In this document: positions 17,324-59,950 of the stretch, in pieces
Layout: the number at the start of each line of letters is the position of its first letter
How positions within the stretch are numbered: position 1 is the stretch's first letter
Assembly (NCBI RefSeq): GCF_000497125.1
Contig: NC_090599.1
Span: 1,488,001-1,552,000 of the forward strand
From: Spironucleus salmonicida
Lineage: Eukaryota
Reading direction: 5' to 3'
DNA length: 64,000 nt
Position numbers and translations under genes: made by a program
Notes under the pieces: generated by a model
What the model saw: the letters and a program-made list of their open reading frames with translations, nothing else
What the model was told of the DNA's origin: nothing
Databases searched by the model: none

Positions 17324-18520
<1,197 letters not shown>

Positions 18521-20336: not shown

Positions 20337-21419
20337 TCAATCCTAAAATAACGATGAACAATCTACTCTAAGCACTTCTTTAAGCCGCGCAAACACTAAT
20401 GAAATGTCTTCTACATTATCTTTAGTAATAAATAATTTATAAGTTTATGTGAATTTTGACTAAATAAGTAGATTTTATATTTGCTGTGCGCTGAAACATG
20501 TAATTACTCTATCGTAATTATTATTTAACGCATCTTCCAAAGCTTCAAGCAGGAAGTTGAATACTTTAAAACAAACGATCATTCTATTTATTTACTACAA
20601 GTTTAAATTTGCTATTAGTATTCCGATTTATTATAGATCAAGCAACTAACTTATTTAAAGAATAAACTAGCAAACTTCTACTAATTATGGCCCTTTCTAT
20701 TTCCGCAAAATCAAATTTACTAACTAAAGTGCTTTATTATCCAAAAGGAAGTAAATTCCATTTGTTAACGTTAATAAATTTAAGGTTTTCAGTAAAATAA
20801 ATGCATTTGAAAACTTTACTGTGATAGAACTTTGCGGTTTAAGAACAAATTTTAATAAGAATTAAAAAACAACTTAAAACTCTATTTAAACTAAATGTTC
20901 AAGCTAACTATACTATCTAGCAGTGTTTAACATGAAAAATAAATACGGATTAAGCATTTCTGGTGAGTAATTAAGGAAGTCAATGAAGTTCTTGTTAATA
21001 AAATCGAAAAACTGATTTGTGAGGTCTGAATCCGAGTTAGTGATTTATGCATATATGTTAAAAATGTTTATAATGGTGTTCATATTATCAGAGTTTTCCT
21101 TAATGAAAAATGGTAGGTTTGCATAAAAATTATATCTCTTCACTAAGGAAAATCGCACTTCAAGGTCAGAAATAATATTATAAACTATGAAGAGAGCTTT
21201 AGTTCTATCTGAATAAATTGGTGAAGTAATCTAGTTTAACAATAACTAAAGAATTTCTGGTGATTTATAGAAATATAGAATAACATTTTCAGGCGGTACA
21301 CTAATAATCTGCGTGAAACTTACTGAAGGTTCATTCTAAATATGTAGTTAACTTTGTCTATTAAACTATAAATTTTTTGGGTCTTTCAACCAGATGTGCA
21401 TGTGAAGTTGTTTATACAT
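20337..21419 (-). CDS. hypothetical helical-repeat (ARM/HEAT-like) protein, 360 aa
   Basis: MYKQLHMHIWLKDP...SSLFQD-TGA; Leu/Ile-rich amphipathic helices. Confidence 0.7.
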
Positions 21420-21470
21420 TAAATGATATAAAATATTATGATATAATATTATATAAATAGATAAAAGTAG

Positions 21471-22217
21471 TCACTCAAATAGGTCAAAAAGTTCTTAAGG
21501 AATCTTCGCTGGCGGGGCATTCATTTCCTTGGTACTCATATAATCGTTAGTCATACCCTCTAAAAACTAAGAATCAAAAGCATTGTTGTCTAAATCTTCA
21601 TCATTTTCTACAAATTAATTTTATTGAGAGAAAATATTTCGCGAGGCGTTAGATGCATGACTAGAATTACTAGATTTAGGTTACTCATCTAAATCAGCAT
21701 ACTTCTATAATACAGATTTGGCTGCCTATAAAGCAACTTAAGGAGTAACTGTACGTGGAACTTTCTTTAATAACTCATCACGTTCATTCTCTGCTTACTA
21801 TCTCCTTTATTATTCCTACTAAAGCAAGGTTTTCAATTATTAATTTTCCGTTCTAAGTCTAGTTAATTCTGAATTAGGGGTTTGCGCTATGCAGCTAACT
21901 ATTTGTTAAGGCTGCAAAACTGGTGTAAAATCTGACCGTTACGACTGCTAAGATTATTAAGATGAATTATTTAATTATATAATTGGAGACTATGCACTGA
22001 GTTCCTCATATAATAGTTTAAACTCCTTCGATGATTATAGTAGAGACTCAAAATCACGTTTATCAAACGATGTTATATTATTCCCTGTAATAATTTTAGT
22101 TATTAACTCAATTTAGTATCTTTTCTCTCTTTCTTATTCATATTCAGCATATTCCTCTTTAGTCATATCAGCTAAGCGTTTACGCTTAGTTGTTAACGGT
22201 GTTGGCATATAGGACAT
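21471..22217 (-). CDS. low-complexity hypothetical protein, 248 aa
   Basis: MSYMPTPLTTKRKRL (NLS-like)...PQELFDLFE-TGA, AGTGA stop. Confidence 0.75.
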
Positions 22218-22296
22218 TTCAAAAAATCTAGCTAAATGTTTATATGAATATATTAATTAATTAGTTAATATATATTTATTGAAAACAAATGAATAC

Positions 22297-25200
22297 TCAT
22301 TTATGATCGATAATATCATATCCTAGATCAAATCTTTCCATTGCAAGCTATATTGCTTTTAATGTTTGCTAATATATCTCTTAAAAACAATCAGGTTTGA
22401 AGTTATCACCTAATAAAAACGGTTGCTAAATTCTGGGAACCCCTTATTCATCTTTAAAAGGATTCTAAAAACTTCCCTATGACTAATAAATTTCAATTCT
22501 TTTCTATCCCGATTACGACTTATAAAGTTTTATAATAATATGTGACATGAAATCTATCCATTATCTATCGACAATTCCTATATAACGTCTAATACTATTA
22601 CAAATACCATGTAAAAGACTTTCTGAAACAAAATATAGTTATATTCCTGGGGTTTCTAACTATTCTGCTATTTCTTTTAGCATTTCATGAGCTATAAGAC
22701 CAGAAATCACCTATCTATTTATTCCTGATGTACCATATTCTAGGGGAATGGAAAATTTTGCCAGAGTTCTTGACATTTCATACGCCTTTCTAAGTCTGGT
22801 ATAAATAGGTTCTGGCAGCAAGTTTCCAGACTAAAGTGCCTCATATCGCAATGTATCATAAACATCTCCTATTTTACTTACGTTAAAATCTTCTTATTTA
22901 CTAAATTAGTCTAGTCCTGCTTGATATCTAGCGATAGTGACGTCATATTTATTTGTATTATCTTGCAATTTCATTTCTAGATAAATATCTAAGATTTCAG
23001 TCATAATATCTCTAATATCTGTCAATTTTTAAAGAGGATTCCCTAAATCTTCAATTTTAAATCCATCTAATTAACCAACTAATCTTTTCATTGTTTAAGG
23101 TAAATCCTTGAGAGGTGTATTACAAAGCTCGATGTTTAATGTAAGTGCATCATTTAATAACTATTTTTCCATTTCCATTAATTTTCGTGCACGTTAATCA
23201 GTATACGATAAAGTTTACTTCTCTTATGGAATTAGTTCAGGAATATTAAATGTTGAACAAATATGTTAGGAAAACTATTGTGCAGTTTCTTATACTCGCT
23301 GCTCATCATTAGTAAATATATTGAAATTCGATAATAATACTTTTAACTCGTCTGGTTTATCGATTAAATCTTCTTATATATGATCTTCTAAAATTTTTGC
23401 TCCTACTTACGATTGAGACATACCTAACTATGTTAATACACCACCGTATTTAAGAATAATAGTACACTTCTTAATTCCTTTCCATGGTACTGGAAACTTA
23501 ATCTAAAATTTCATTGCAGGGGGATATGTCATCGCAACTTAGAATAGTATTTCAAGTTACTAGAAGTCTTTCTATGAAAATTCTTGTCTATGTTCTAATA
23601 AAAACTAATTCATTAAAGGGATCGAATAAGTTATTGATTCTATATGTTTATCTATAGAAAGAGAAATATCCTTAGGCTATGAAGGTTTTAAGTCAAATAA
23701 TTTGATAATTAAATCAACATAATGTGGAATATAGATATTAATCTTTATTTTTTATTTTGGTTATCTATCACCATGCCTATAAATGCCTACAACTGATTCT
23801 AAAGTAAAATCTGCATTGAATTGAGAATGCTTAAGGATTTTTGTACTGAGTTTATTCATATTTGTTAATGGAAATAACGAAAATATCATTTCTGGGTCAT
23901 CAATTGGCATTGAGTTAAATGGTACTGGCTGCCAAGAATCTTAGCTTTGTCCACGTGAGTAATAAATCTCTACAAATCTAGATGGACCTTAAAGATTTTC
24001 TGAGTTAATTAATTCATCTACAGATTTTGATAAGTCATAATCGTCACTGATCTTTTATAGATAATCACTACTTTGAAGTTCAGAATACAAAAAATGCAGT
24101 TAAGAACAATAATTTACTGCTTCTAATTACTATTCAGTCTAAATATTAAAACTAGCAAGTTCCTACATTTATGTGCCTGATAATAGATTATAAAGAGCAT
24201 ATATATGAGGTTGATCTGTTACGTAAAATCTGACTTAAAATTTATCCTTTTATATTATTTAAACTTCATCTAATTTACTAGAATGTTCTGATGGCGATTT
24301 AGGCGGTAACCTTTTCTTGCTTGACTTTGTTAATTATTAGGCAAATTTAAGAACATTATTATCAGATTAAATTACATTATTGCTATCTGAAAATTCTTAA
24401 TCATGACTACTTTTCATTGAAGAACCAACATTTGATTCGTCAACAATTTCTTACTGACGTTAAGTTTGATCCATTTTTTACATTTATATAATTTCTTGTT
24501 TTCTAAAATAATTAAAACTCATCTACATATCATCTTGAATACTACGAAGGAGGTTTGCTGTAATTTTTTCTCCTATTTATACTTTGTATAATTATGTACA
24601 CCCATACATGACCCCAATTAATGGTTTATAATAACTACTTATTAATACAAAAAGCTCTTAAAATTCTGGAATACTTTTCACCAACCCACCATGATGGGTA
24701 AGAAGAAATAAAAATAGTTCATATAGATCAGTTATTTTCGAAATATTAAAAAGAACTTTATTGTCCTCTTACAATGTTGCAAACTGCCGTACTACATATT
24801 ATATAAAACTAGACATGCATATATCTGATTTTACATAAACTGTGTTGTGATTTGTAGCTGCAAATAATATGTATTACTTCTACGATGCCAAAATTTATTC
24901 TAATTAAGATAAAACAATTTAAATTAAATTAGTAATATGTTCGAAAATCATTTTATGTGTGAAATTATAGCCGTAATTTTTCTTAAATTCTTATATACAC
25001 GGATAAAACTACTCTCTTATTATGTCATAATATCTTATTCTAAAATGCTTCCCTGATATATTATTAAAATCATCATTAAGTAAAAAATTATTTATATCTT
25101 TTAAGTACTGTTTTTATCTAATTTTTAAAGAATTCGATTATATATTAAGCGATTAATCTTCACATTATAAAAGATTTCTTAAATGATGAATTGAATAATC

Positions 25201-27201
25201 TAATGATGGTATATTTTAATTATTATGTAGTTTCTCAAGATAACTAAAAATATCTGGGCAAATAAAATCTGACGATGTATATGGTTCTTAATTTAAAAAT
25301 GGTAATATCTGCTCAATATCAACCTCGTCTGGTGAATAAAATCCTAATATTAAAGCTTATGCAGATTTAAATACTCGTCTTTCAGATGTGTGAAATATTT
25401 TCAACAAAATATCTTTATTGCTTTTAGTTTCAACAAATTTTTTTCTTGCTAGCTTACCAGCTTTAAATGCCTAACGTAATCCAGCTATTGTTAAATATCC
25501 ACCCCATTTAATAGTAAACTAATATGTTCCTTAGCTTAGGTCTTTAATTTATATTTTTGTACCAGAAAGTTATTGAATAATTAAATAAATCATCAATTTA
25601 ATACCTTCTAATGTAAGAGTATTTATTTATTTATTAGAATCTATCTCTTTTGGCTCATGATCTAATATATTTTATGGAGTTGAAATAACTTAATAAATTT
25701 TGGATATTTAAATTGTTGATAAATTTACTTTATGCAAACTAATATAATCCTCTAGATCTTCTGCAATTTACATAGATCTTTCGTACTAAAACTCAGGCCT
25801 CATACGGAAATCTAATCTCTCCCCTTATTCCGGTTTATTAACAAAGAGCTATAGTAAATCAATATCTTAAGTAATAAATCGAAACTTAAACTTTGGTGCA
25901 CGATCAGCATGCCTAAAAACTGACATCAACCCTCGTTATTTAATAGAATTGTTACTAATATATTTGTTATAGTAATCAGTACTTAAATCTTTACTAAGTT
26001 TATCTATGTATCTATTCGAAAGTGTTAATATCTTGTTGTTAAAAACATCATACGATGGTTACAAGTACTTATTGCTTATTACGAATAAATCTTTACCTAA
26101 ATATTAATAATTTCTTCTATATGCATCTAAAATTATCATTTTTGCTATAACTTAGCAACATTAATCTTCATAAAATAAATTTCCTTTGACAAAACTGAAA
26201 CCATTAACATCCATTATTAGTGATTTCCCATCTAAGGTTCTTAATATATCTAAACCACATATTAATTATCGAAAAGCTAGCCCAACATTCCGGGCCATTT
26301 CTCTTTCAATTTCAGAAAGCTCAATCTACTACCTTTTTTCTTTTCCTGTTATTTCATCTCTCTCAACCACCCCATCAACATGTGGAGCTTTTCTTATTTC
26401 TGCTAGCATATAATTTGGATAAATTGAATATATCTTCATGTCTTTCCCTCCAGAGTCCAAAAATTCTTCGTAAACATAACAGCCATCTCTACGAATTTAA
26501 AACTATCCTTCCTCAAAGCTAGAAGCCTTATTTTCAATTTTACGAAATAGTTTAATTATTCCAGTTTTAGTATAAATATAAACATTATGGTTATCTGCAT
26601 CCATTGGTTTTTCAATGAATGGTCTATTAAGTTTTCGTCCATTGTAATCAATATAATCATTAGTTTAAATTAAAGTCTACGGATCCTTGTATTAACAGGT
26701 TAAACAATTTTATTTAAGTACAGGATAGTCCTATTCTTATTTCAAAACAAACTCACACGAACATGTTTTACTAGTCAATTTGCCTTTATTTTGGCTAAGG
26801 ATCTACTTCTAAATAGTCTAACAATCTTGGCAATATACTCTTTATCTATGAATTATTATGAATTATGGTTATGGTACGTTATGATTGTTAAGTAAGTGTT
26901 TTATGTAACCTCTATTGAACAGTATTTTTTAATTCTCAATAGAGCCATTTACAACAGTAATATTACGCTTTTTCACATATTGAATTACTTTATTTATAGG
27001 AAAACCTGTTGAATGAAAAGCTATAGCAGCAAAAACATCGTCTGGCCAGTTCTCAATTGGCTCATTGAGAATCATTTCCTCGGAAAATATTTTAATTTCT
27101 AAAGTTTTTGTTTCTTACATTATTTTCTTAAGAATTGCTTGCATTGGCTTGGCATTGGCTTTTTTTGCCATACATATTATACCTAGTGCTTATCTAAACA
27201 T
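22297..27201 (-). CDS. VIP1: inositol pyrophosphate kinase VIP1/PPIP5K with two histidine-acid-phosphatase domains, 1634 aa
   Basis: GIICMAKKANAKPM, ILNEPIENWP, FHSTGFP, EKPMDADNHNV, EIRKAPHVDG, CGLDILR, DVNGFSFVK; RHADR at 25900-25914 and RHGDR at 23764-23778. Confidence 0.95.
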
Positions 27202-28331
27202 TAAAACCATATGATATTATATTATATAATAATTAAAAATGTTCCAAACCATTTTACATCTTAAAAATTAGTGAAAATATAGAAGAATATAAAATATTTT
27301 TGAATAAATTATAAGATATAACTATAAATAGTGAATGAACATTGATCTTCCATTAAAAATTAATATTGATTGATATGATGTACAAATATGATAAAGCATA
27401 TTACTATTGGCACTAAATCCATTTATGATTGATTTTGTAGATAAATTATAGTTAAATATGAGCATAGGATATATAAAATATATCTATAATTTTATTAAAT
27501 AAACTCAATTCTAATTGATGTTATATCGATGAACTTTATTTTCATTGTTATCCTTACAATCTTATCTAATTAAAATTATCGAAGAGTTAAATAAATCTAG
27601 TAAAAATCATATATTAACGATATTTTGTTACACATTAGTAAAGTAAAATACGTATTTTGGAAATCCTTATATAGTTTATCTTTATTTTTATAATTTAATA
27701 TCTTACATTATGAATAATTTATTTTATCTAAGTCTAGTATACTACTTGAATTATACAATTTATACAAGTCTGTCTGATTATTATTTATTAAAATTGAAAG
27801 TATTTCTATTTATTACATATTTAGTATTGTGAACGTATGTTTGTTAGTTAAATATGAAAGTGTTAAAATAATATGTTACAAAATTATAATTATAGTAGTG
27901 ACATATTTATAAGAATTATTAAAGTTAAATTAAAATTTATTATCAGATTATACTGATATAATTTTGATCTAACAGGAATTCGTCAGAATTTAGTCGTGTT
28001 CAAATATTATTGATAATAAATTGTTTATTTCTTGTAACTAAAAGAATTAAACAATCCTTTTGTAAATAGTGTAATAGATACAACAAAAACTAAACGTAAA
28101 ATATATAGCTTTTCAATATACTTATTAATTCAAAGGCATTATATTATATTTTAATAATAATATTAAATAAATGAAATCTTATTTTTAAATATCTTTATTT
28201 AGACTATAAAAACTCAAACTATAATATATATACTCTATATTATGATATTTATAATATTAATAAACTTAAACATTTATAAAAGGGACATACTATACAAAAA
28301 TATAAAGATATTTAGGTAAAATGTAAAATTA

Positions 28332-29896: not shown

Positions 29897-30166
29897 TCAC
29901 CCGCTCTTAAAGATTAGGAAGGCAAGTTAACCTACATAAAAATAAATCATCCTTTTAGCTTCATGGGAGATGTTTGTGGTGAAATTTTTACCAACGAGCA
30001 CGTGCCAACAGGGCTAAAATTTCTTATCGAACTCTTTCTTAATGTAGGCTGATATATCTTTTTCCAACACAAAACGCTCCATAGCTTGAGATGCTAATTC
30101 TTAAGCCTCACCTTGCATGTCTTCTGGCATATCCTGAAGTTTTATGATAATTTGACGATCTGACAT
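29897..30166 (-). CDS. DYNLL: dynein light chain LC8 family, 89 aa
   Basis: MSDRQIIIKLQDMPEDMQ..EKDISAYIKKEFDKKF.PCWHVLVGKNF..HE..IYFYVGQLAFLIFKSG. Confidence 0.95.
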
Positions 30167-30170
30167 TTAT

Positions 30171-30179
30171 ATTGCGGAA
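30171..30179 (-). promoter_or_regulatory. TTCCGCAAT motif just upstream of LC8
   Basis: same motif upstream of the 42493 gene (42518-42526); variant TTTCGCAAT upstream of ZMYND12 (10089-10097). Confidence 0.4.
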
Positions 30180-30212
30180 GGAAAAATATAACTGTGTAAC
30201 TAAATAATAATA

Positions 30213-30833
30213 TCATTCAGGAAAAATCTTCAAAGTTATATATTTGTCAAATTATTTTTTTGAAAAATCATTAAAACCAAGTTGCTTCCAGTCTGAGACA
30301 TATCTATTGACGAAAAGACCTGCCAATTTCCCACATGTACTTTTTCTGTAAATTCTGCAATAACTTTCGAAAAAAATTATCTTAGTAGTAAACTTTCTCA
30401 TTATAGTATAGTATTTACACACTAATATTACTGGTAATGCTGTTCCTGGTCCATTTGTAATAAGTAACGCTGGACGGTAATATCCTACAACACCTGCAAC
30501 TCCGAGAATAGCTTAAATAGTTGAAAAAATACTAGAAAAATACGACTAACCTACTTCTCTAGCCCTCGGAATTTTTATGAAATGACCAGCAGGATACTGC
30601 TTGAGAAAAACGGTTTCTGAAAATCTGTCAGTCTCGGCAAGCAGAAATATCATATTTTTAGGTTTAACGTGGGATAGAATTTCGAGCATTTCCCTGGTAT
30701 GCCCCCCAGACCCCAAAACGACCATGGTGACATCTGATGTATTAGGCTTCGCAAATAGTTTAAAAAACAGGGTCAGACACACAGCAAGCACGCAGAGCAT
30801 CGTAACCCCCAAAAATGCTACAGCAACGGCCAT
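30213..30833 (-). CDS. ALG14: UDP-GlcNAc transferase subunit ALG14, 206 aa
   Basis: N-terminal anchor, VVLGSGGHTREM, IPRAREVGQS, TNGPGT, FESYCR. Confidence 0.93.
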
Positions 30834-30941
30834 TAAATTTTATGTGCCCCATTTTATATAATATTCGCGTATATTGTTAATTTTAAAAGGCTAATTTTTC
30901 ACCTACCGTACTATTAACTCTTTTCGCTTCCGCCTTCCAAA

Positions 30942-31553
30942 ATGGCATCGGCATACCTCCCGCATCACCCGGAAGTCGCTGCGCAGCGCGCAACACTCCA
31001 AGCCTCCAATTCGCTCCAGACCTCTAATGCGGTCTAGGGCACGCGGCTCTCTGAAGCCGTTTCCGCGCTCTCCGCGTCCTTCGGGGAGCTGCACACGCTG
31101 GAGGCGCACGCGGCGGAGGCGAAGAACGCAGTCGAAATCCTCCAAAACTTCGCAGCGGAAACGCACGCGAAGAACGAGTCCCTGAAGGTGCTGCTGGACG
31201 AAACGGACGCCTGGAACCAAAATTTGAGGGCCAAAATAGCGCGCGTCCGCGGCCTGTAACTCGCGCAAAACGACACAGAATCGCTCAAAAAAATCGCAAA
31301 TTGCAAGGCGCACGAGAGTCGGAAATTGCAAAAACAATTTGATTTTTCACTCCAATTGATGGAGGAGTTGAAAATTTGGAACGCGCGCAAGATACCCGAA
31401 ACACTGCAGTTTTCGTGGCTCTAGGAGCTGCAGAAGTCGACGGTTTCCGTCGCGCGGCTGCTCATCGGGCTCAAAGAGGCGTTGGATGTGGAAAACGGGG
31501 CGAATAGCGCCCTGGAGAGAAGTTTGGAGATGAGTTTGGGGCCTTTGGAGTGA
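30942..31553 (+). CDS. GC-rich helical/coiled-coil hypothetical protein, 203 aa
   Basis: MASAYLPHHPEVAAQR...LGPLE-TGA (AGTGA); G/C-ending codons; C-rich leader; still has in-frame TAA/TAG Gln codons. Confidence 0.8.
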
Positions 31554-31869
31554 GAGGTATTTTTGGCTAATTCGCTGAGTTTTTAAGGCAAGGAGATAGT
31601 TGCTCTGAGCAAATTAAGGAGAAACGGCGCAGTTTTAGTTCAAATAGGGATTGAGGTTTCTAAAGTTTAATTGTGTTGCTGTGGAAATAGGTTAATTATG
31701 GTATTTGATAGTTAAGAAAAGTGATGTTCATGCTAACTACTTCTTAGGTATTAATACTAATATTGGCATTCGAATGCTGAGTTAGTGTAGTCAGGATAAT
31801 AAACCACTGAATAAAGTGCAAGTTGTGTTGAAATCAGAGGCGGTAGCTTCTATTATCACACAAAAATGC

Positions 31870-32640
31870 TCACTTCACGAATCGTGACAAATGACGCTGG
31901 TTGTTCAAGAACGGAAAATATTAAGATTTAGAGAGGATTTTGTTCTAAACTTCCGCCAACTTTTACTATGTTATAACAAGTATTTTATTCTTGTTAAGTT
32001 TAGAAGAAAGCTACGGGACAGGGAGTGTTTCCCCCAAAATCAAAAAGTTGAAAACAGATTGAAGTGTAGACTAATTAACCAAGAGCAACCGGGATAAATT
32101 TAGTTATGTATTCGTTAATATTATTGTGTTAGAATTGAAATAATAAGCAAACGGAGCGATTATATCATAAATATTGGTAGAAAAAGTGAAAGATAGAACA
32201 GGAATATTTAACGATTTCAGTTATAGAAGCAAATTAGGTACTAAGTCTGGATCAGAATATGTTACAAAAGCAAAAAGTTGCTAGTTATGCAATTCTTAAA
32301 AAGCTAAAAGAAAGTTTATCTACGCTAAGTTGAGTAAACTCGTCATCTCATGCTAGATAAATAGGAGTAGGGGACCTACTAGCTAGTTTTTGATATAAGC
32401 TTCGATTTATATGAATATAGAAAGATCATTAAATAACGTTTCTAGCTAACTTGATTACTAAAGAGATAATGGGGTTGATATCTATTTAATGAAAGTTGAA
32501 TTTTTTATATTTTTCTCTTAAACTGTAAGTTAAGTGGAATATTGCAATGGTAACTTACTCATAAATGGTAATTTAGTGTAATCAATTGTGAGTTGTTCTC
32601 GTTGGAATACCGAAAGTGATAACTCATTGAGAAAGGTCAT
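31870..32640 (-). CDS. hypothetical protein, 256 aa
   Basis: MTFLNELSLSVFQ...SRFVK-TGA, AGTGA stop. Confidence 0.7.
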
Positions 32641-48784: not shown

Positions 48785-51700
48785 TCACTTTTTAGCATTT
48801 CTTTCTTCCCAAATTTCACTTGTATTTACCATATTCTGTTAAAGTTTAGCATATAAACAATAGTCCAACTTTGTAAGGGTACTGGCTTTAAAAACTAATC
48901 TATTAATTTCACCTAAGAACGGTCTTAGTACAAAATTAACAAAACCTATCTAACTTCCACACAAAAAATCTAAATCTCTTTTGTTGGGATTCAAAATGAG
49001 GTTAGGCGGCCAATTTAATTCTCTCATTATATCTCCTGTAATTCTTTACTCATTGATATAGGAGTAAGCCCAATATTCAGCAACAGGGAAAGAACGGGTG
49101 GGATTTGCTAAGTCTCCAAATTTCATAATGCACTTCATAACAAACCATTTGAATATTTAATCCCTTTAGTTAATTTTGTTGTGTTTAAACCTATCGAAAT
49201 ATTCCATTAAATAATTAGAACTAATTTTTGTAATTTTTTAAACAAAAGGAAAATGGAACGTCATATCTGTTGCCAAGACAAGTTCAATAAACTTAATCCG
49301 AAATTCTCTAAATTGAGGAACCGACCAGTTCAAAAATATAGTGGAAAATTTTGAAACTAATCCCCAGGATAATGAAGCATGTGCCTATTCCATAGGGCCA
49401 ATATCATTGTAAATAATCGCAGCAACATTCTATGAATTAATACAAAATGGATTATCTATACCAGTATGACCAAAATCATGGCAACATGCTGCCATTATTA
49501 AAGAAAATATATCAGTTGGTGAAAGAATAATTTCTCTTTATGAAGCACTTTATTCAAATGAAGTTTATTTCACGAAAGCTGAATATTAAGCATTTATGGC
49601 TAAAATTTACAAAAATACCATTTGTACGAAATCTGCGATATGTAATCTATTGTGATATAATGTAGGTGTATAACCTTATTCTAATTCATATAAACATGCA
49701 AATAATGCAGTATCTGGAATTTGCAATAGCACGTCAATATCCAAATATTTGATTGCCAAAAATGTAACTGCTAGTGCACAATGACCTTTGGACAAATATT
49801 CTATTTATCTAGCATCAAAAGTTGTCCTGAAAAAGTACTATTACACATATTTAAGAAACTTGTCAATATCATACTCTTTAGTTTCAACTTTATGGTAAGT
49901 GTCATTATTCTTTAAAACATCATTTATATATAACAAGACATGATATAGTGAATCTTACAAAATACTTAATTTGCAATGTCCCTACATATCAAACTAATAA
50001 ACAGTATCATGGATTTCAATTTCCGGTAAATTTAAAGGAGTTCGAATATTTTCAGGATATGAATCAGAGAACAACGTCTACATGTAATGATAAACTTACT
50101 AACATTCTTTAATTCGCTCTTAATTCTGCAAATATTTGGTCGTATCGTACTAAATGGCCAAATACTATTTCGAACTTTTATTCGATTTCACGAAACTCGG
50201 ACTAAAACTTTTCATGCTCTATTTTTCTTCAAAAGTATCATTTTCAAGCACAGAAATAATCTCTTCTTCAGTTATTTCTGCTTTTTCTTCAGTATCAAAA
50301 TCTGCGAATTGAGGCTCATTAAATAACATAGTTGGATCAATTTCATCATCAATATCGCTGCATATTTGACTACGCACTTGAATGTCCTAAATTTCAATTT
50401 TATCGATTAAAACAGATTGCGCTAACGTTTACTCGAGCTGGTTTCTGACATCTTCTGGTAGTTTTAAATTTTAAATTTATTATTCAAATATTTGTAAAAC
50501 CGATTGCATGGCTACTATATGTTGTACTACGGGAGAGTGCTTCGCTTGAATCAGTGAATGAGGACGCTATTATGAAAATTAAAGATATGCCTTGTGTAGA
50601 TGCTTATGCTATGATATTTAGCTAAATTTCTATAAAAATGAGAGAATATTTGCATCCTCGGCATAGTTAAAACGGTCTGGGAGATACTGATTTTATATTT
50701 TAACAATAGGTTGGTAAAAATCAAGTAAGTCGCTTATATAATCTTATTTTTACTAGTCGTTTTAGTTATAAAAGTTATCTAAATCGCCAATATCAATAGT
50801 CTTTTTCTTAGTTTTTATTTCAGGAGGTTTTCCAAACATGAGCTCTTTAAATTGTTCAGACTTTGTTGCGTACTTATATATGAATTGTAAATATTTATCA
50901 GTATCTTTTTCAAGGAAAACATGAGCTAAATAGCATAATTAGAAGCTTGCCTCGAGTTCAGCACAGTAAAAAATATGATTTATGATCTAACGTTATTTCT
51001 TCCGATAAGTCTACCCTTAGGTATCATTACTTGTTTGCTACTACTTGCTTTACTCAGAAGAGTGCTCCTCCTGTATAAATTCGTCATCATCTTCAAAAAA
51101 CATGGTCTACACGCTATCCTACAACAAATTCAAGTTTTTATCTAACTGGTTAAACGCGTGACGAGAAATACTTAATTCTCCGCTCTGAACGAGGTCCTAA
51201 TATTTAATAAAAATAATATTTGCGGTTGTTGTATCAATAGTGAATTGTGTTTTAAGTAGAAATGAATCCTGTAGAAACAATAAGAGATTCTGACACCTAT
51301 TAAAATAGAGCCACCCCGCAAAGAGTTTAAAAAGAACTTCATTCTCGAAAACATTTTCGATTTTCGGTTTTGAGGAAAGGGACACAAAAATAGCTAAAAC
51401 GGAGCTACAAACAAAGGCAAAAAGGATAGGGACGTACATATATAGTTTATCAAATAGAACAAGTGACTTCTAGGCCTCTACGAGGGCATATGCCCATTTT
51501 ACTTTGTCGTTTGTTGCGGATTAGTATATTTTGATCAAGTTGGACGAATTTTCGAAAATTCTAATTAGGACAATTTAAAGATAAAAATCATAAATAATTA
51601 AAGCTAATGTAATGACATTAAAAATAAAAATGATAAGCGGGAGACCTTAAAATTTTGGAAAAATGTTCTTTGGAAGCTATCTATACAGTCGTTAATCTGG

Positions 51701-52336
51701 TAATTTTGGTTCTCTATCTTCTAAAAATGATTTGGAAATTGATTATTTATTGAGGGATGATTATGGAATTTTATATAAATGGTCTTTCGCTTGAACTTTG
51801 CTTTACCTAGATTTGAATAAAAAGAAATTATGCTAATTATTTACATTCATCATATTTAACATTAAAAATTCGTATATTTGAACTGATAAATAGAGTACAA
51901 AAACTAGCAATTTAAAAATGTTGAAGAAAAATATTTAATAAGCAATTGAGTAATTGATTGGAGCTAGGATTAGCAAGAAAAATACAACTGTTTAAAGAAC
52001 AACTACGTGTGGGAAATATAAAGGTTCTAAGTTCCAGGTTGTTATTATTTAATTATAAGCAAGGTTAAAATAACAGGTTAGCATTAGAATTTATATGCCT
52101 AAGTTGATATAATATATGCATTGCAAACCTACATCTGGTTCAAAATAGTTGTATGATACTATAAGCATAAAAAACTGCTAAATTGTTATAAGTACTGCCC
52201 CAATTAAGGGAGTTATAACTGAAAAAATAACGACTGGCATTTTTAATGTTAGAGTCTTCTGTAAAAATATAGCTATAGCACACCAACCCGATATAGGGCA
52301 GGCTAAGGCAAAAAACTTAGAGAAGTTAGAATCCAT
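48785..52336 (-). CDS. class I cyclic-nucleotide phosphodiesterase with N-terminal 7TM-like region and RGS-like segments, 1183 aa
   Basis: YHNRLHIAD, AACCHDFGHTG, MEQAH, LATDM, MKFGDLANP, QIGFVNF; seven hydrophobic helices N-terminally; AGTGA stop. Confidence 0.93.
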
Positions 52337-58450: not shown

Positions 58451-59950
58451 ATGGAGAAAATTAAAGTATTTTTACGAATACGTCCTTCAACTGAAAACGT
58501 AATTTTCTTTGCAGACAGTAATACTACACTACGTGTAAATTAAAATGAATCTGGTTATCACTTTGACCAAGTACTCGATCAGCAAATTACAAATTCTGAG
58601 CTTTTTGCTCTTCTTCACCCACCAATTCATTCTTTCCTAGATAATTTTAATACAACAATTTTAGCATACGGATAGTCAAATTCTGGAAAGACTCACACAA
58701 TGTTGTCAGATGATGGTTTGGTGTTCTAAAGCGCCAAACTTATTTTCTAACATATAAAAAGTTTCAAACTTTAGATTTTAGAACTTTATAACGAATAGTT
58801 AATTGATCTATCAACTGGTGTTTAGCTAACTATATTTGAGAAAAACAACATTACCTAGCTCAAAAACGCGTCGGAAACTCTAGTAAATCCAGATAATTTT
58901 GTGCAAATTCTTAAAACTTTACTCAATAAGCGTGCAGTTTCATCCACTAAACTCAACTAATCCTCTTCACGTTCACATCTCCTAATTAGATTTATTAACG
59001 AAAATAATGCTATTCTAACATTTGCTGACCTTGCTGGCTCAGAAAAATAATCTAAAACGTAAGCAGAAGGTTAATAGTTAAAAGAAGCAAACAATATAAA
59101 TTCAGCCCTGCTATCACTCAGTAAAGTTGTTTTTGCTCTTGCAAATTCGTAAAAATTTATCCCTTTTCGGGATTCTAAACTAACCAGAATGCTCCAAAAT
59201 TCGCTTGGTGGAAACTCAAACTGTTATATTATAGGATGTATATCTGGTCTAGAAGTTCATAAAGAGGAGAGCTTGAATTCTATAAAATTTTGCTAGCGGG
59301 CGATGGATATATAGAACTAAGTTGTTTAAGTTAAAAAGGAGGAAAGAATTGATATTTTAGAGCTTAAAAGAGAGATAGAAAGGCTTTAGGGGTTATAAAA
59401 TGAACCTGTATAAAAATGTGACTTTGGAGCCTAAGAAGATAAACTAGAGGTATTTTATGGAGATTTGTATGAAGAATAACATCAAATAATCAATAATATG
59501 GTAAATAGTTATTGCAATGAAATACGAGAGATAAAACAGTAAACTTAAATATAGTAAGCGAAAAATACATTAGAGGTAAAAACTTAGGGGGTTAAAGAAA
59601 TGTTTAGCTTTGTGAATAAATATGTTAAACGAGTTAAACGTTTGGAATAATAAGTTGATAATTTGCTTAGAGAATAAAAGTAATATGGTAATGCATCTAC
59701 ATAAACTGAGAAAAGTGTAGATAATAGTTATAAGGTGTTAGATTCTACAATTATTTCGTCATTAACTTTAAGTGGTTTAGACACATAATCAAACTAACTA
59801 GCATCAACTTGTAATTAATAGACTATCATGAACACCATGGTAAGTAGTGAAAAGAGGTCAGCTGAGGAAAAAATATTAGATAGAACACGAAGTATAAAAT
59901 GTAAAAGACATTAAGACTTAATCTCATCTTTAGAAGGCACAAAAGATTGA
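58451..59950 (+). CDS. kinesin motor protein (N-terminal motor + coiled coil), 499 aa
   Basis: IKVFLRIRP, FDQV, AYGQSNSGKTHTM, LELYNE, NQSSSRSH, DLAGSE, IPFRDSKLTRMLQNSLGGN. Confidence 0.95.

Follow-up and report, generated by a model that had tools for sequence, protein, structure and literature searches.

We describe a gene of Spironucleus salmonicida that lies on the reverse strand of a 64,000-nucleotide stretch of contig NC_090599.1 (RefSeq assembly GCF_000497125.1, positions 1,488,001 to 1,552,000), hereafter the window, whose own numbering is used throughout. The locus is one gene of the PPIP5K/Vip1 family, in which a kinase half is followed, in a single continuous frame, by two phosphatase domains that we term PD1 and PD2 (phosphatase domains 1 and 2). 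An original prediction, made from the letters of the DNA, had proposed just such a VIP1/PPIP5K gene with a tandem phosphatase duplication in one frame. The domain matches bear it out, as PPIP5K2_N and two His_Phos_2 domains are found in a frame with no internal TGA, and 15/15 of the motifs listed in that prediction occur in the translation at about the places it gave for them. The features of the gene are as follows; Glu991 and His993 refer to residues of the Saccharomyces cerevisiae enzyme (ScVip1), and pLDDT is the predicted local distance difference test score of the structure models.

22297..27201 (-): whole PPIP5K coding sequence (CDS), 1634 codons plus the TGA stop at 22297-22299, with TAA/TAG read as Gln
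26107..27201 (-): kinase half, residues 1-365, with PPIP5K2_N at residues 6-94 (26920-27186) and the ATP-grasp part
26680..26838 (-): Cys-rich kinase insert, residues 122-174, CxxC ... CxC ... CxxC before YKDP, placed by alignment
23902..25944 (-): PD1, residues 420-1100, predicted PPIP5K-type histidine phosphatase, His_Phos_2 55.6 bits
25891-25914 (-): RHADRAPK of PD1, residues 430-437
25633-25719 and 24817-24879 (-): two smaller low-confidence inserts of PD1, pLDDT < 50
25543-25563 (-): GTKIQIK, capture strand of PD1
25498-25509 (-): KWGG, landmark of PD1
25372-25386 (-): SERRV, landmark of PD1
24247..24444 (-): largest low-confidence insert of PD1, residues 920-985, pLDDT < 50
24205-24216 (-): DQPH of PD1, Gln at the Glu991 position
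23806..23901 (-): PD1-PD2 linker, ~residues 1101-1132, in frame and stop-free
22474..23805 (-): PD2, residues 1133-1576, canonical-looking PPIP5K phosphatase, His_Phos_2 79.1 bits
23755-23778 (-): RHGDRQPK of PD2, residues 1142-1149
23497-23514 (-): MKFQIK, capture strand of PD2
23440-23451 (-): KYGG, landmark of PD2
23293-23307 (-): DEQRV, landmark of PD2
22615-22626 (-): SESL of PD2, with the Glu kept and Leu at the His993 position
22300..22473 (-): C-terminal tail, residues 1577-1634, with a helix predicted at residues 486-506 of the PD2 piece

One reading frame from kinase to second phosphatase

The gene becomes readable only with a departure from the usual code. Under translation table 11, the open reading frame (ORF) listing holds no long ORF across the region; under table 6, where TAA/TAG encode Gln, one open frame spans 22297..27465 (-), and the Met at 27201 gives a protein of 1634 residues. 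The in-frame Gln codons of the gene comprise 82 TAA, 36 TAG, 19 CAA, and 6 CAG. Not one of the 1634 codons is an internal TGA, where base composition would lead one to expect 33.5 (probability of none, 1.9e-15) and the other five frames over the same span contain 18-68 each. In alignments, the TAA/TAG codons occupy columns in which relatives hold a conserved Gln, for example, the Q of TPKQK in PD2, the Q of the GLRQAF motif in PD1, and the equivalent of the ScVip1 residue Q625 in the capture strand, which is encoded by TAA in PD1 and TAG in PD2. The lack of internal TGA and the placement of TAA/TAG at conserved Gln columns together make both the code-6 reading and the single frame well founded.

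The public gene model of the locus, P0002 (1615 aa), likewise consists of a single uninterrupted CDS. It begins only at the third in-frame Met, 19 codons after 27201, so that 27145-27201 (-) is left out and the conserved GxCxMxKKxxSKP kinase start is cut into. Because the conserved beginning of PPIP5K2_N, LGIICMAKKANAKP, is lost from this model, its start is probably wrong; the N-terminal alignment favors the Met at 27201.

At the junction between the two phosphatase domains, the last motif of PD1 and the first strand of PD2 are separated by a gap of only ~30 residues, and over residues 1045-1141 TGA occurs 0 times in the PPIP5K frame but 2 and 6 times in the remaining two. The junction is bridged colinearly by contigs of 4/4 public runs, all from one study, and no joints were seen in the contigs of these runs within 21400-27900. 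They cover 21469-22207 and about 22296-27177, with depth rising toward the 3' end. Cover is absent at 22208-22295 and beyond 27259 in 4/4 runs, which looks like transcript boundaries, yet absent cover is in itself no evidence. The largest insert of PD1 (24247-24444) is covered colinearly and joint-free by contigs of 3/4 runs, so that nothing marks it as an intron.

The kinase half is recognized chiefly by PPIP5K2_N (PF18086), which scores 86.1 bits against a cut-off of 35, and by the motifs PFIEKP, LFRK, YVYEEF, and DVNGFSFVK (26185-26211), which align with those of the mouse and fungal PPIP5Ks. The RimK ATP-grasp profile gives only a weak match (15.1 bits, under its cut-off of 21), and many PPIP5Ks likewise list no PF08443. 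The Cys-rich insert of the kinase is present in the window protein, P0122, P0124, and P0272 and absent in P0125, P0129, P0003, mouse, and fungus; its pattern of cysteines could represent a zinc-binding module. At the other end of the protein, the Pfam scan found no family match in the tail after PD2.

Two PPIP5K-type domains and their shared history

A Pfam scan of the whole protein matched His_Phos_2 in 2 stretches. When the two parts were scored separately, the PD1 piece (residues 420-1119) gave 55.6 bits (E 7.8e-15, profile 6-308 of 354) and the PD2 piece (residues 1120-1634) gave 79.1 bits (E 5.6e-22, profile 1-349 of 354), against a Pfam gathering score of 23.6. These are the two non-overlapping matches that the original prediction had anticipated. 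A custom profile derived from the phosphatase domains of 12 non-redundant single-domain PPIP5Ks also runs through the protein twice and in order, first over residues 423-1044 and then over 1133-1576. The copies have diverged strongly, with 24% identity over the best 206 columns (BLASTP, E 3e-4), and PD1 is the longer (700 vs 515 residues as cut), with inserts that are modeled at low confidence. The earlier remarks on divergence and on insertions in the first copy thus stand, as does the conclusion that this is not an assembly artifact.

Several comparisons place both domains with the phosphatases of PPIP5Ks. Among PDB sequence matches at E <= 0.01, each domain retrieves only the yeast Vip1 phosphatase-domain entries 9grn, 9grh, and 9gro, and the alignment of PD2 with 9grn covers almost the full length (query 15-452, chain 6-442). 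The PD2 model is of high confidence (pLDDT 92, predicted template modeling score [pTM] 0.90), whereas that of PD1 reaches pLDDT 65.4 and pTM 0.71 and includes three disordered inserts. In Foldseek searches with these models, the first 9 matches are ScVip1 phosphatase-domain chains for both, with E 3.0e-24 to 5.5e-21 for PD2 (the next, a phytase, at 6.8e-8) and 8.3e-18 to 7.8e-14 for PD1 (the next at 1.4e-3); phytase, MINPP, and acid phosphatase folds rank below all nine Vip1 chains in either case. The GAF-insert stretch between RHxxR and KWGG is present in both domains, with alpha/beta elements predicted there in both models. Within it, GTKIQIK of PD1 aligns with GTKIQLK of 9grn, and MKFQIK of PD2 is aligned to the same strand; the placement in PD1 comes from phmmer and MAFFT alignments, as hmmalign misplaced it. 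On this combined evidence of sequence and models, both domains are of the PPIP5K type, including the predicted substrate-capturing GAF-like insert.

When 1.84 billion representative proteins were searched exhaustively by phmmer with PD2 as the query, 230 matches reached E <= 1e-3, and in the best of them the matched part is the extreme C terminus of a very long protein. Two traversals of the custom profile were found in 8/149 proteins from this search (P0122, P0124, P0125, P0126, P0129, P0131, and the fragments P0123 and P0128) and in 2/54 proteins from a search seeded with P0124 (P0271 and P0272). Among 120 further PPIP5K-type proteins, two traversals were seen only in the window's own model, plus a borderline case, P0049, which was rejected as a tandem protein as its short second traversal is read as an insert, with a 33-position overlap. 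The kinase - PD1 - PD2 layout is thus common to at least 10 proteins or fragments from public assemblies, and these relatives have orthologous sets of PD1 and PD2, albeit only 25-34% identical to the window domains. P0122, P0124, P0271, and P0272 share a window-like PD1 signature, WGGYL(T/S).(A/S)GLRQ.F, where P0126 has WAGFLTVAGLRQAF; of these, P0122, P0124, and P0272 also have the Cys-rich kinase insert of the window protein, P0271 being outside that alignment. The relatives differ from the window protein in two respects: the PD2 of all of them keeps ESH, unlike the window PD2, and the PD1 of P0124, P0125, P0129, and P0131 has lost residues of RHxxR, unlike the window PD1.

Trees were built from profile-aligned domains, quickly with 68 rows under two models and more carefully with 30 rows under LG+C20+F+G4, and the quick trees agree with the careful one. 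In the latter, the PD1s of P0126, the window protein, P0122, and P0124 form a clade with support 96/97, and the PD2s of the same four proteins, plus that of P0123, form another with support 100/99; the branching order is identical in the two clades. All nine PD2s group together (86/93). Forcing the window PD1 and PD2 into one clade costs 39.5 log-likelihood units and is rejected by the approximately unbiased (AU) test (p-AU 0.00018). The rows of these trees are long-branched and compositionally odd, but long-branch attraction is an unlikely cause of the pattern because the same order arises in two independent domain sets. PD1 has the longer branch (2.43 vs 1.58 for PD2). These alignments and trees show the tandem to be an old internal duplication inherited by several lineages. 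It is older at least than the point at which the window lineage parted from the lineages of P0122, P0124, and P0126, and all tandem proteins may go back to one origin, with which the data are compatible.

Two accounts would explain away the fusion or its age. It is very improbable that the locus holds two separate genes, an ordinary PPIP5K and a downstream stand-alone phosphatase, joined in appearance only by TAA/TAG codons that do not stop translation. Such a view could draw on the facts that none of the runs is recorded as RNA, that no single record spans the whole gene, and that some PD2 matches are short proteins (e.g., P0133, 515 aa), though these are possibly fragments. However, in-frame TGA is absent throughout, including the junction; PD1 and PD2 are just ~30 residues apart; the public model is one CDS; the contigs of 4/4 runs bridge the junction; and the order kinase - PD1 - PD2 recurs within one protein in P0122, P0124, P0125, P0126, P0129, P0131, P0271, and P0272. 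The chance that the second domain is instead a recent duplication or assembly artifact private to this genome, or that the gene is a fusion of a PPIP5K with a phytase/MINPP-like histidine acid phosphatase, we regard as close to negligible. Beyond the two His_Phos_2 matches as such, nothing speaks for it, whereas the copies are just 24% identical and cluster separately, each with the corresponding domain of other organisms, the AU test rejecting their union. We specifically considered that a PPIP5K might have been fused to an unrelated histidine acid phosphatase. This is ruled out by the fold and sequence matches, which put Vip1 first, its structures outscoring those of phytase, MINPP, and acid phosphatase by 13-16 orders of magnitude, and by the presence in both copies of the GAF-insert stretch and the PPIP5K-specific capture strand. 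As far as sequence can tell, private duplication, artifact, and fusion are already refuted.

Catalytic residues and the roles of the two domains

The available excerpts of PMC11836120 describe R547, H548, and R551 of ScVip1 as essential, K554 as needed for activity, and the hinge P553/G646/G647 and the GAF residues K623/Q625/K627 as needed too. They put Glu991 where the proton donor sits in phytase and report that the E991A enzyme is more active and accepts 1-InsP7 too. His993, once called the second catalytic His, is described there as buried and structural; earlier work summarized in the same source found that mutation of its Schizosaccharomyces pombe equivalent lowered activity. ScVip1 also has a structural Zn site made up of His651, Cys793, His836, and His1064.

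R547, H548, R551, K554, G646, G647, and the arginine of ERR are invariant in 121/121 single-domain PPIP5Ks, and all are kept in PD1 and PD2, the RHxxR motif reading RHADR in the former and RHGDR in the latter, in agreement with the original prediction. Both domains also keep the equivalents of K623 (Lys in 119 of the 121 single-domain proteins), Q625 (Gln in 119), K627 (Lys in 108), and K644 (Lys in 121). We considered the window PD1 as a pseudophosphatase by residue loss and rejected this, as it keeps the equivalent of every residue of the invariant set.

The two domains do part ways at other positions. At the Glu991 position, PD1 has Gln and PD2 has Glu; the residue is Glu in 114/121 single-domain proteins, the other 7 being without it. 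At the His993 position, PD1 has His and PD2 has Leu, with His in 108/121 single-domain proteins. The closer fragments P0127 and P0135 keep His there, so that the Leu is private to the window lineage. This differing "second His" is a structural and not a catalytic residue in the yeast enzyme according to the excerpts of PMC11836120; the Gln at the Glu991 position of PD1 is the more telling difference between the domains. At the Zn site, ScVip1 Cys793 faces a Lys in PD2 in the phmmer alignment, in which this stretch is poorly aligned.

Within the tandem family, residues of RHxxR are lost in 4/8 PD1 sequences versus 0/10 PD2 sequences. The PD1s concerned, those of P0124, P0125, P0129, and P0131, are natural candidates for PPIP5K-type pseudo-phosphatases. 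In that of P0124, the nucleophile is gone and the basic capture strand (VRIKLR) and the WGG hinge are kept.

The explanation that we favor, with some reserve, is that the gene encodes a kinase - PD1 - PD2 enzyme of the PPIP5K/Vip1 family in which PD2 is a canonical phosphatase domain and PD1 is probably a second working inositol-pyrophosphate-binding phosphatase. The kinase half would convert 5-InsP7 to 1,5-InsP8, as in other PPIP5Ks, and PD2 would act as the standard 1-pyrophosphatase, converting InsP8 to 5-InsP7. PD2 is the slow-evolving domain, in which RHGDR and the Pro-Lys pair, the hinge of two Gly residues, the invariant Arg, and an equivalent of Glu991 are all in place. PD1 evolves much faster and yet holds all invariant catalytic and capture residues, as would most likely befit a second working phosphatase, and its Gln at the Glu991 position may translate into altered substrate choice or regulation, by analogy with yeast E991A. 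Across the family, part of the conserved role of PD1 is probably ligand binding or control of the neighboring domains; that this role should be partly noncatalytic is suggested by the loss of the PD1 nucleophile in several relatives.

Several observations weigh against this explanation. The activity of either domain is read from residues only, making PD1 and PD2 predicted phosphatases, and the model of PD1 is of moderate quality (pLDDT 65.4, with 9 sequences in its alignment). Gln differs from Ala, so that the analogy with E991A might fail, and PD2 could be weakened by the Leu at the His993 position. At the column of the Zn-site residue His651, PD1 has Ile and PD2 has Gln, though just 40/121 single-domain proteins have His there. 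The losses in the PD1s of relatives, which read RSGDR in P0124, RYADR in P0125, QFAEN in P0129, and RHGDI in P0131, point to catalysis by PD1 being dispensable there, and it might be vestigial in the window protein. All seven PD1s fall on one side of a branch of the careful tree, with weak support (36/39). Finally, the RNA nature of the contig runs is only a guess.

It is conceivable, if somewhat doubtful, that PD1 is non-enzymatic in this organism and serves as a ligand-binding or regulatory module, such as an inositol pyrophosphate or phosphate sensor or a scaffold, which tunes the kinase and PD2. The confinement of RHxxR losses to PD1 (4/8, with PD2 intact in 10/10), the faster evolution of PD1, its want of a Glu991 equivalent, and the conservation across the subgroup of PD1-specific motifs such as WGGYLTxAGLRQxF would all fit such a role, and the P0124 domain (RSGDR, with VRIKLR and WGG kept) has the expected look of a binder without catalysis. 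However, the window PD1 retains every 121/121-invariant residue despite a very long branch, which is difficult to account for unless the active site is under selection, and replacement of Glu991 activated rather than killed the yeast enzyme in the excerpts of PMC11836120. The division into a catalytic and a sensing domain put forward in the original prediction therefore remains plausible for the family, where RHxxR is lost in PD1s only, but it is not visible in the window protein; because both of its domains keep the invariant residues and the GAF capture residues, such a split is not shown for this gene. A further reading, which we think unlikely, would be a three-activity signaling enzyme in which PD2 hydrolyzes 1,5-InsP8, PD1, given its Gln at the specificity-setting Glu991 position, hydrolyzes or senses another inositol pyrophosphate (e.g., 1-InsP7), and the ligand occupancy of PD1 gates the kinase versus PD2. 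If true, the relatives without a nucleophile would be natural pure sensors, so that the PPIP5K family would contain a ready-made gradation from enzyme to receptor. Between these proposals, PD1 as a second working phosphatase beside a canonical PD2 remains our preferred reading.

Genomic setting and comparison with known enzymes

The window is AT-rich (about 23-42% GC per 2 kb) and gene-dense, with long ORFs found solely when TAA/TAG are read as Gln, e.g., 17327-18520 (-), 48788-52336 (-), and 58451-59947 (+). The neighboring genes, readable only with code 6, encode a protein kinase, a HECT protein, Alg14, a cytosolic carboxypeptidase (M14), a cyclic-nucleotide phosphodiesterase, Sua5, and a kinesin. 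Pfam domains are matched without interruption in 10/18 of the ORFs scanned (for instance, Pkinase 2-263 of 263, PDEase_I 1-233 of 238, and Kinesin 31-327 of 327), which suggests that the genome has few introns. Such a genome, read with this code, would suit a hexamitid and a ciliate alike. Just downstream of the PPIP5K stop lies a Gln-rich, coiled-coil-looking ORF without a Pfam match (21474-22207, (-)), covered at about 21458-22207 by contigs of 4/4 runs. In full, this table-6 ORF reaches 22688 and overlaps the 3' end of the PPIP5K gene in another frame, and on account of that overlap its real start is probably a later Met. A local GC peak (0.416 vs about 0.23-0.36 elsewhere) at 30001-32000 spans the Alg14-like ORF 30216-30965; scans of the window, this peak included, gave no tRNA or Rfam matches.

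Compared with S. cerevisiae Vip1, S. pombe Asp1, human PPIP5K1-2, and Arabidopsis VIH1-2, the window protein has the same N-terminal PPIP5K2_N and ATP-grasp kinase. In its phosphatase part, as in the Vip1 family, RHxxRxPK and the KWGG hinge are present along with the invariant Arg and a GAF-like insert carrying the TKIQxK capture strand, and its PD2 shares the family's Glu at the proton-donor position. Unlike these proteins, it has two phosphatase domains in series, and it departs from Vip1 in having Gln for Glu991 in PD1, Leu for His993 in PD2, His651 in neither, and the Cys-rich kinase insert. In the available parts of PMC11836120 and PMC8024741, PPIP5Ks are described as having one kinase and one phosphatase domain; the window protein departs from this usual architecture by its second phosphatase domain, and we treat it as a variant of PPIP5K rather than a nonmember. 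The double-phosphatase layout is accordingly a variant within a known family and not a new kind of enzyme. In full-text literature searches, no description of a PPIP5K carrying a second phosphatase domain came to light, the survey by Randall et al. 2020 and domain-architecture databases lying outside their scope.

Through the messenger InsP8, the level of which is set by PPIP5Ks, SPX-domain proteins are informed of phosphate and energy status. How kinase and phosphatase are balanced within one PPIP5K chain is still being worked out. A conserved second phosphatase domain, intact in some lineages and without its nucleophile in others, offers comparative material on noncatalytic roles of phosphatase modules and on the natural use of the Glu991 position. 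It also corrects the assumption of one kinase and one phosphatase in the counting and annotation of protist PPIP5K genes.

An analogy, and only an analogy, may be drawn with the tandem D1-D2 receptor tyrosine phosphatases such as CD45 and LAR, in which, according to the available parts of PMC2213029 and PMC6994669, one domain is active and the other is diverged, often impaired, and regulatory. In both cases, two homologous phosphatase domains stand in series, one conserved and the other diverged. However, CD45 and LAR have the cysteine-based protein tyrosine phosphatase fold, which is unrelated to the histidine phosphatases, and carry no kinase in the same chain. Moreover, it is their proximal domain that is active, whereas in the window protein the conserved domain is the distal PD2.

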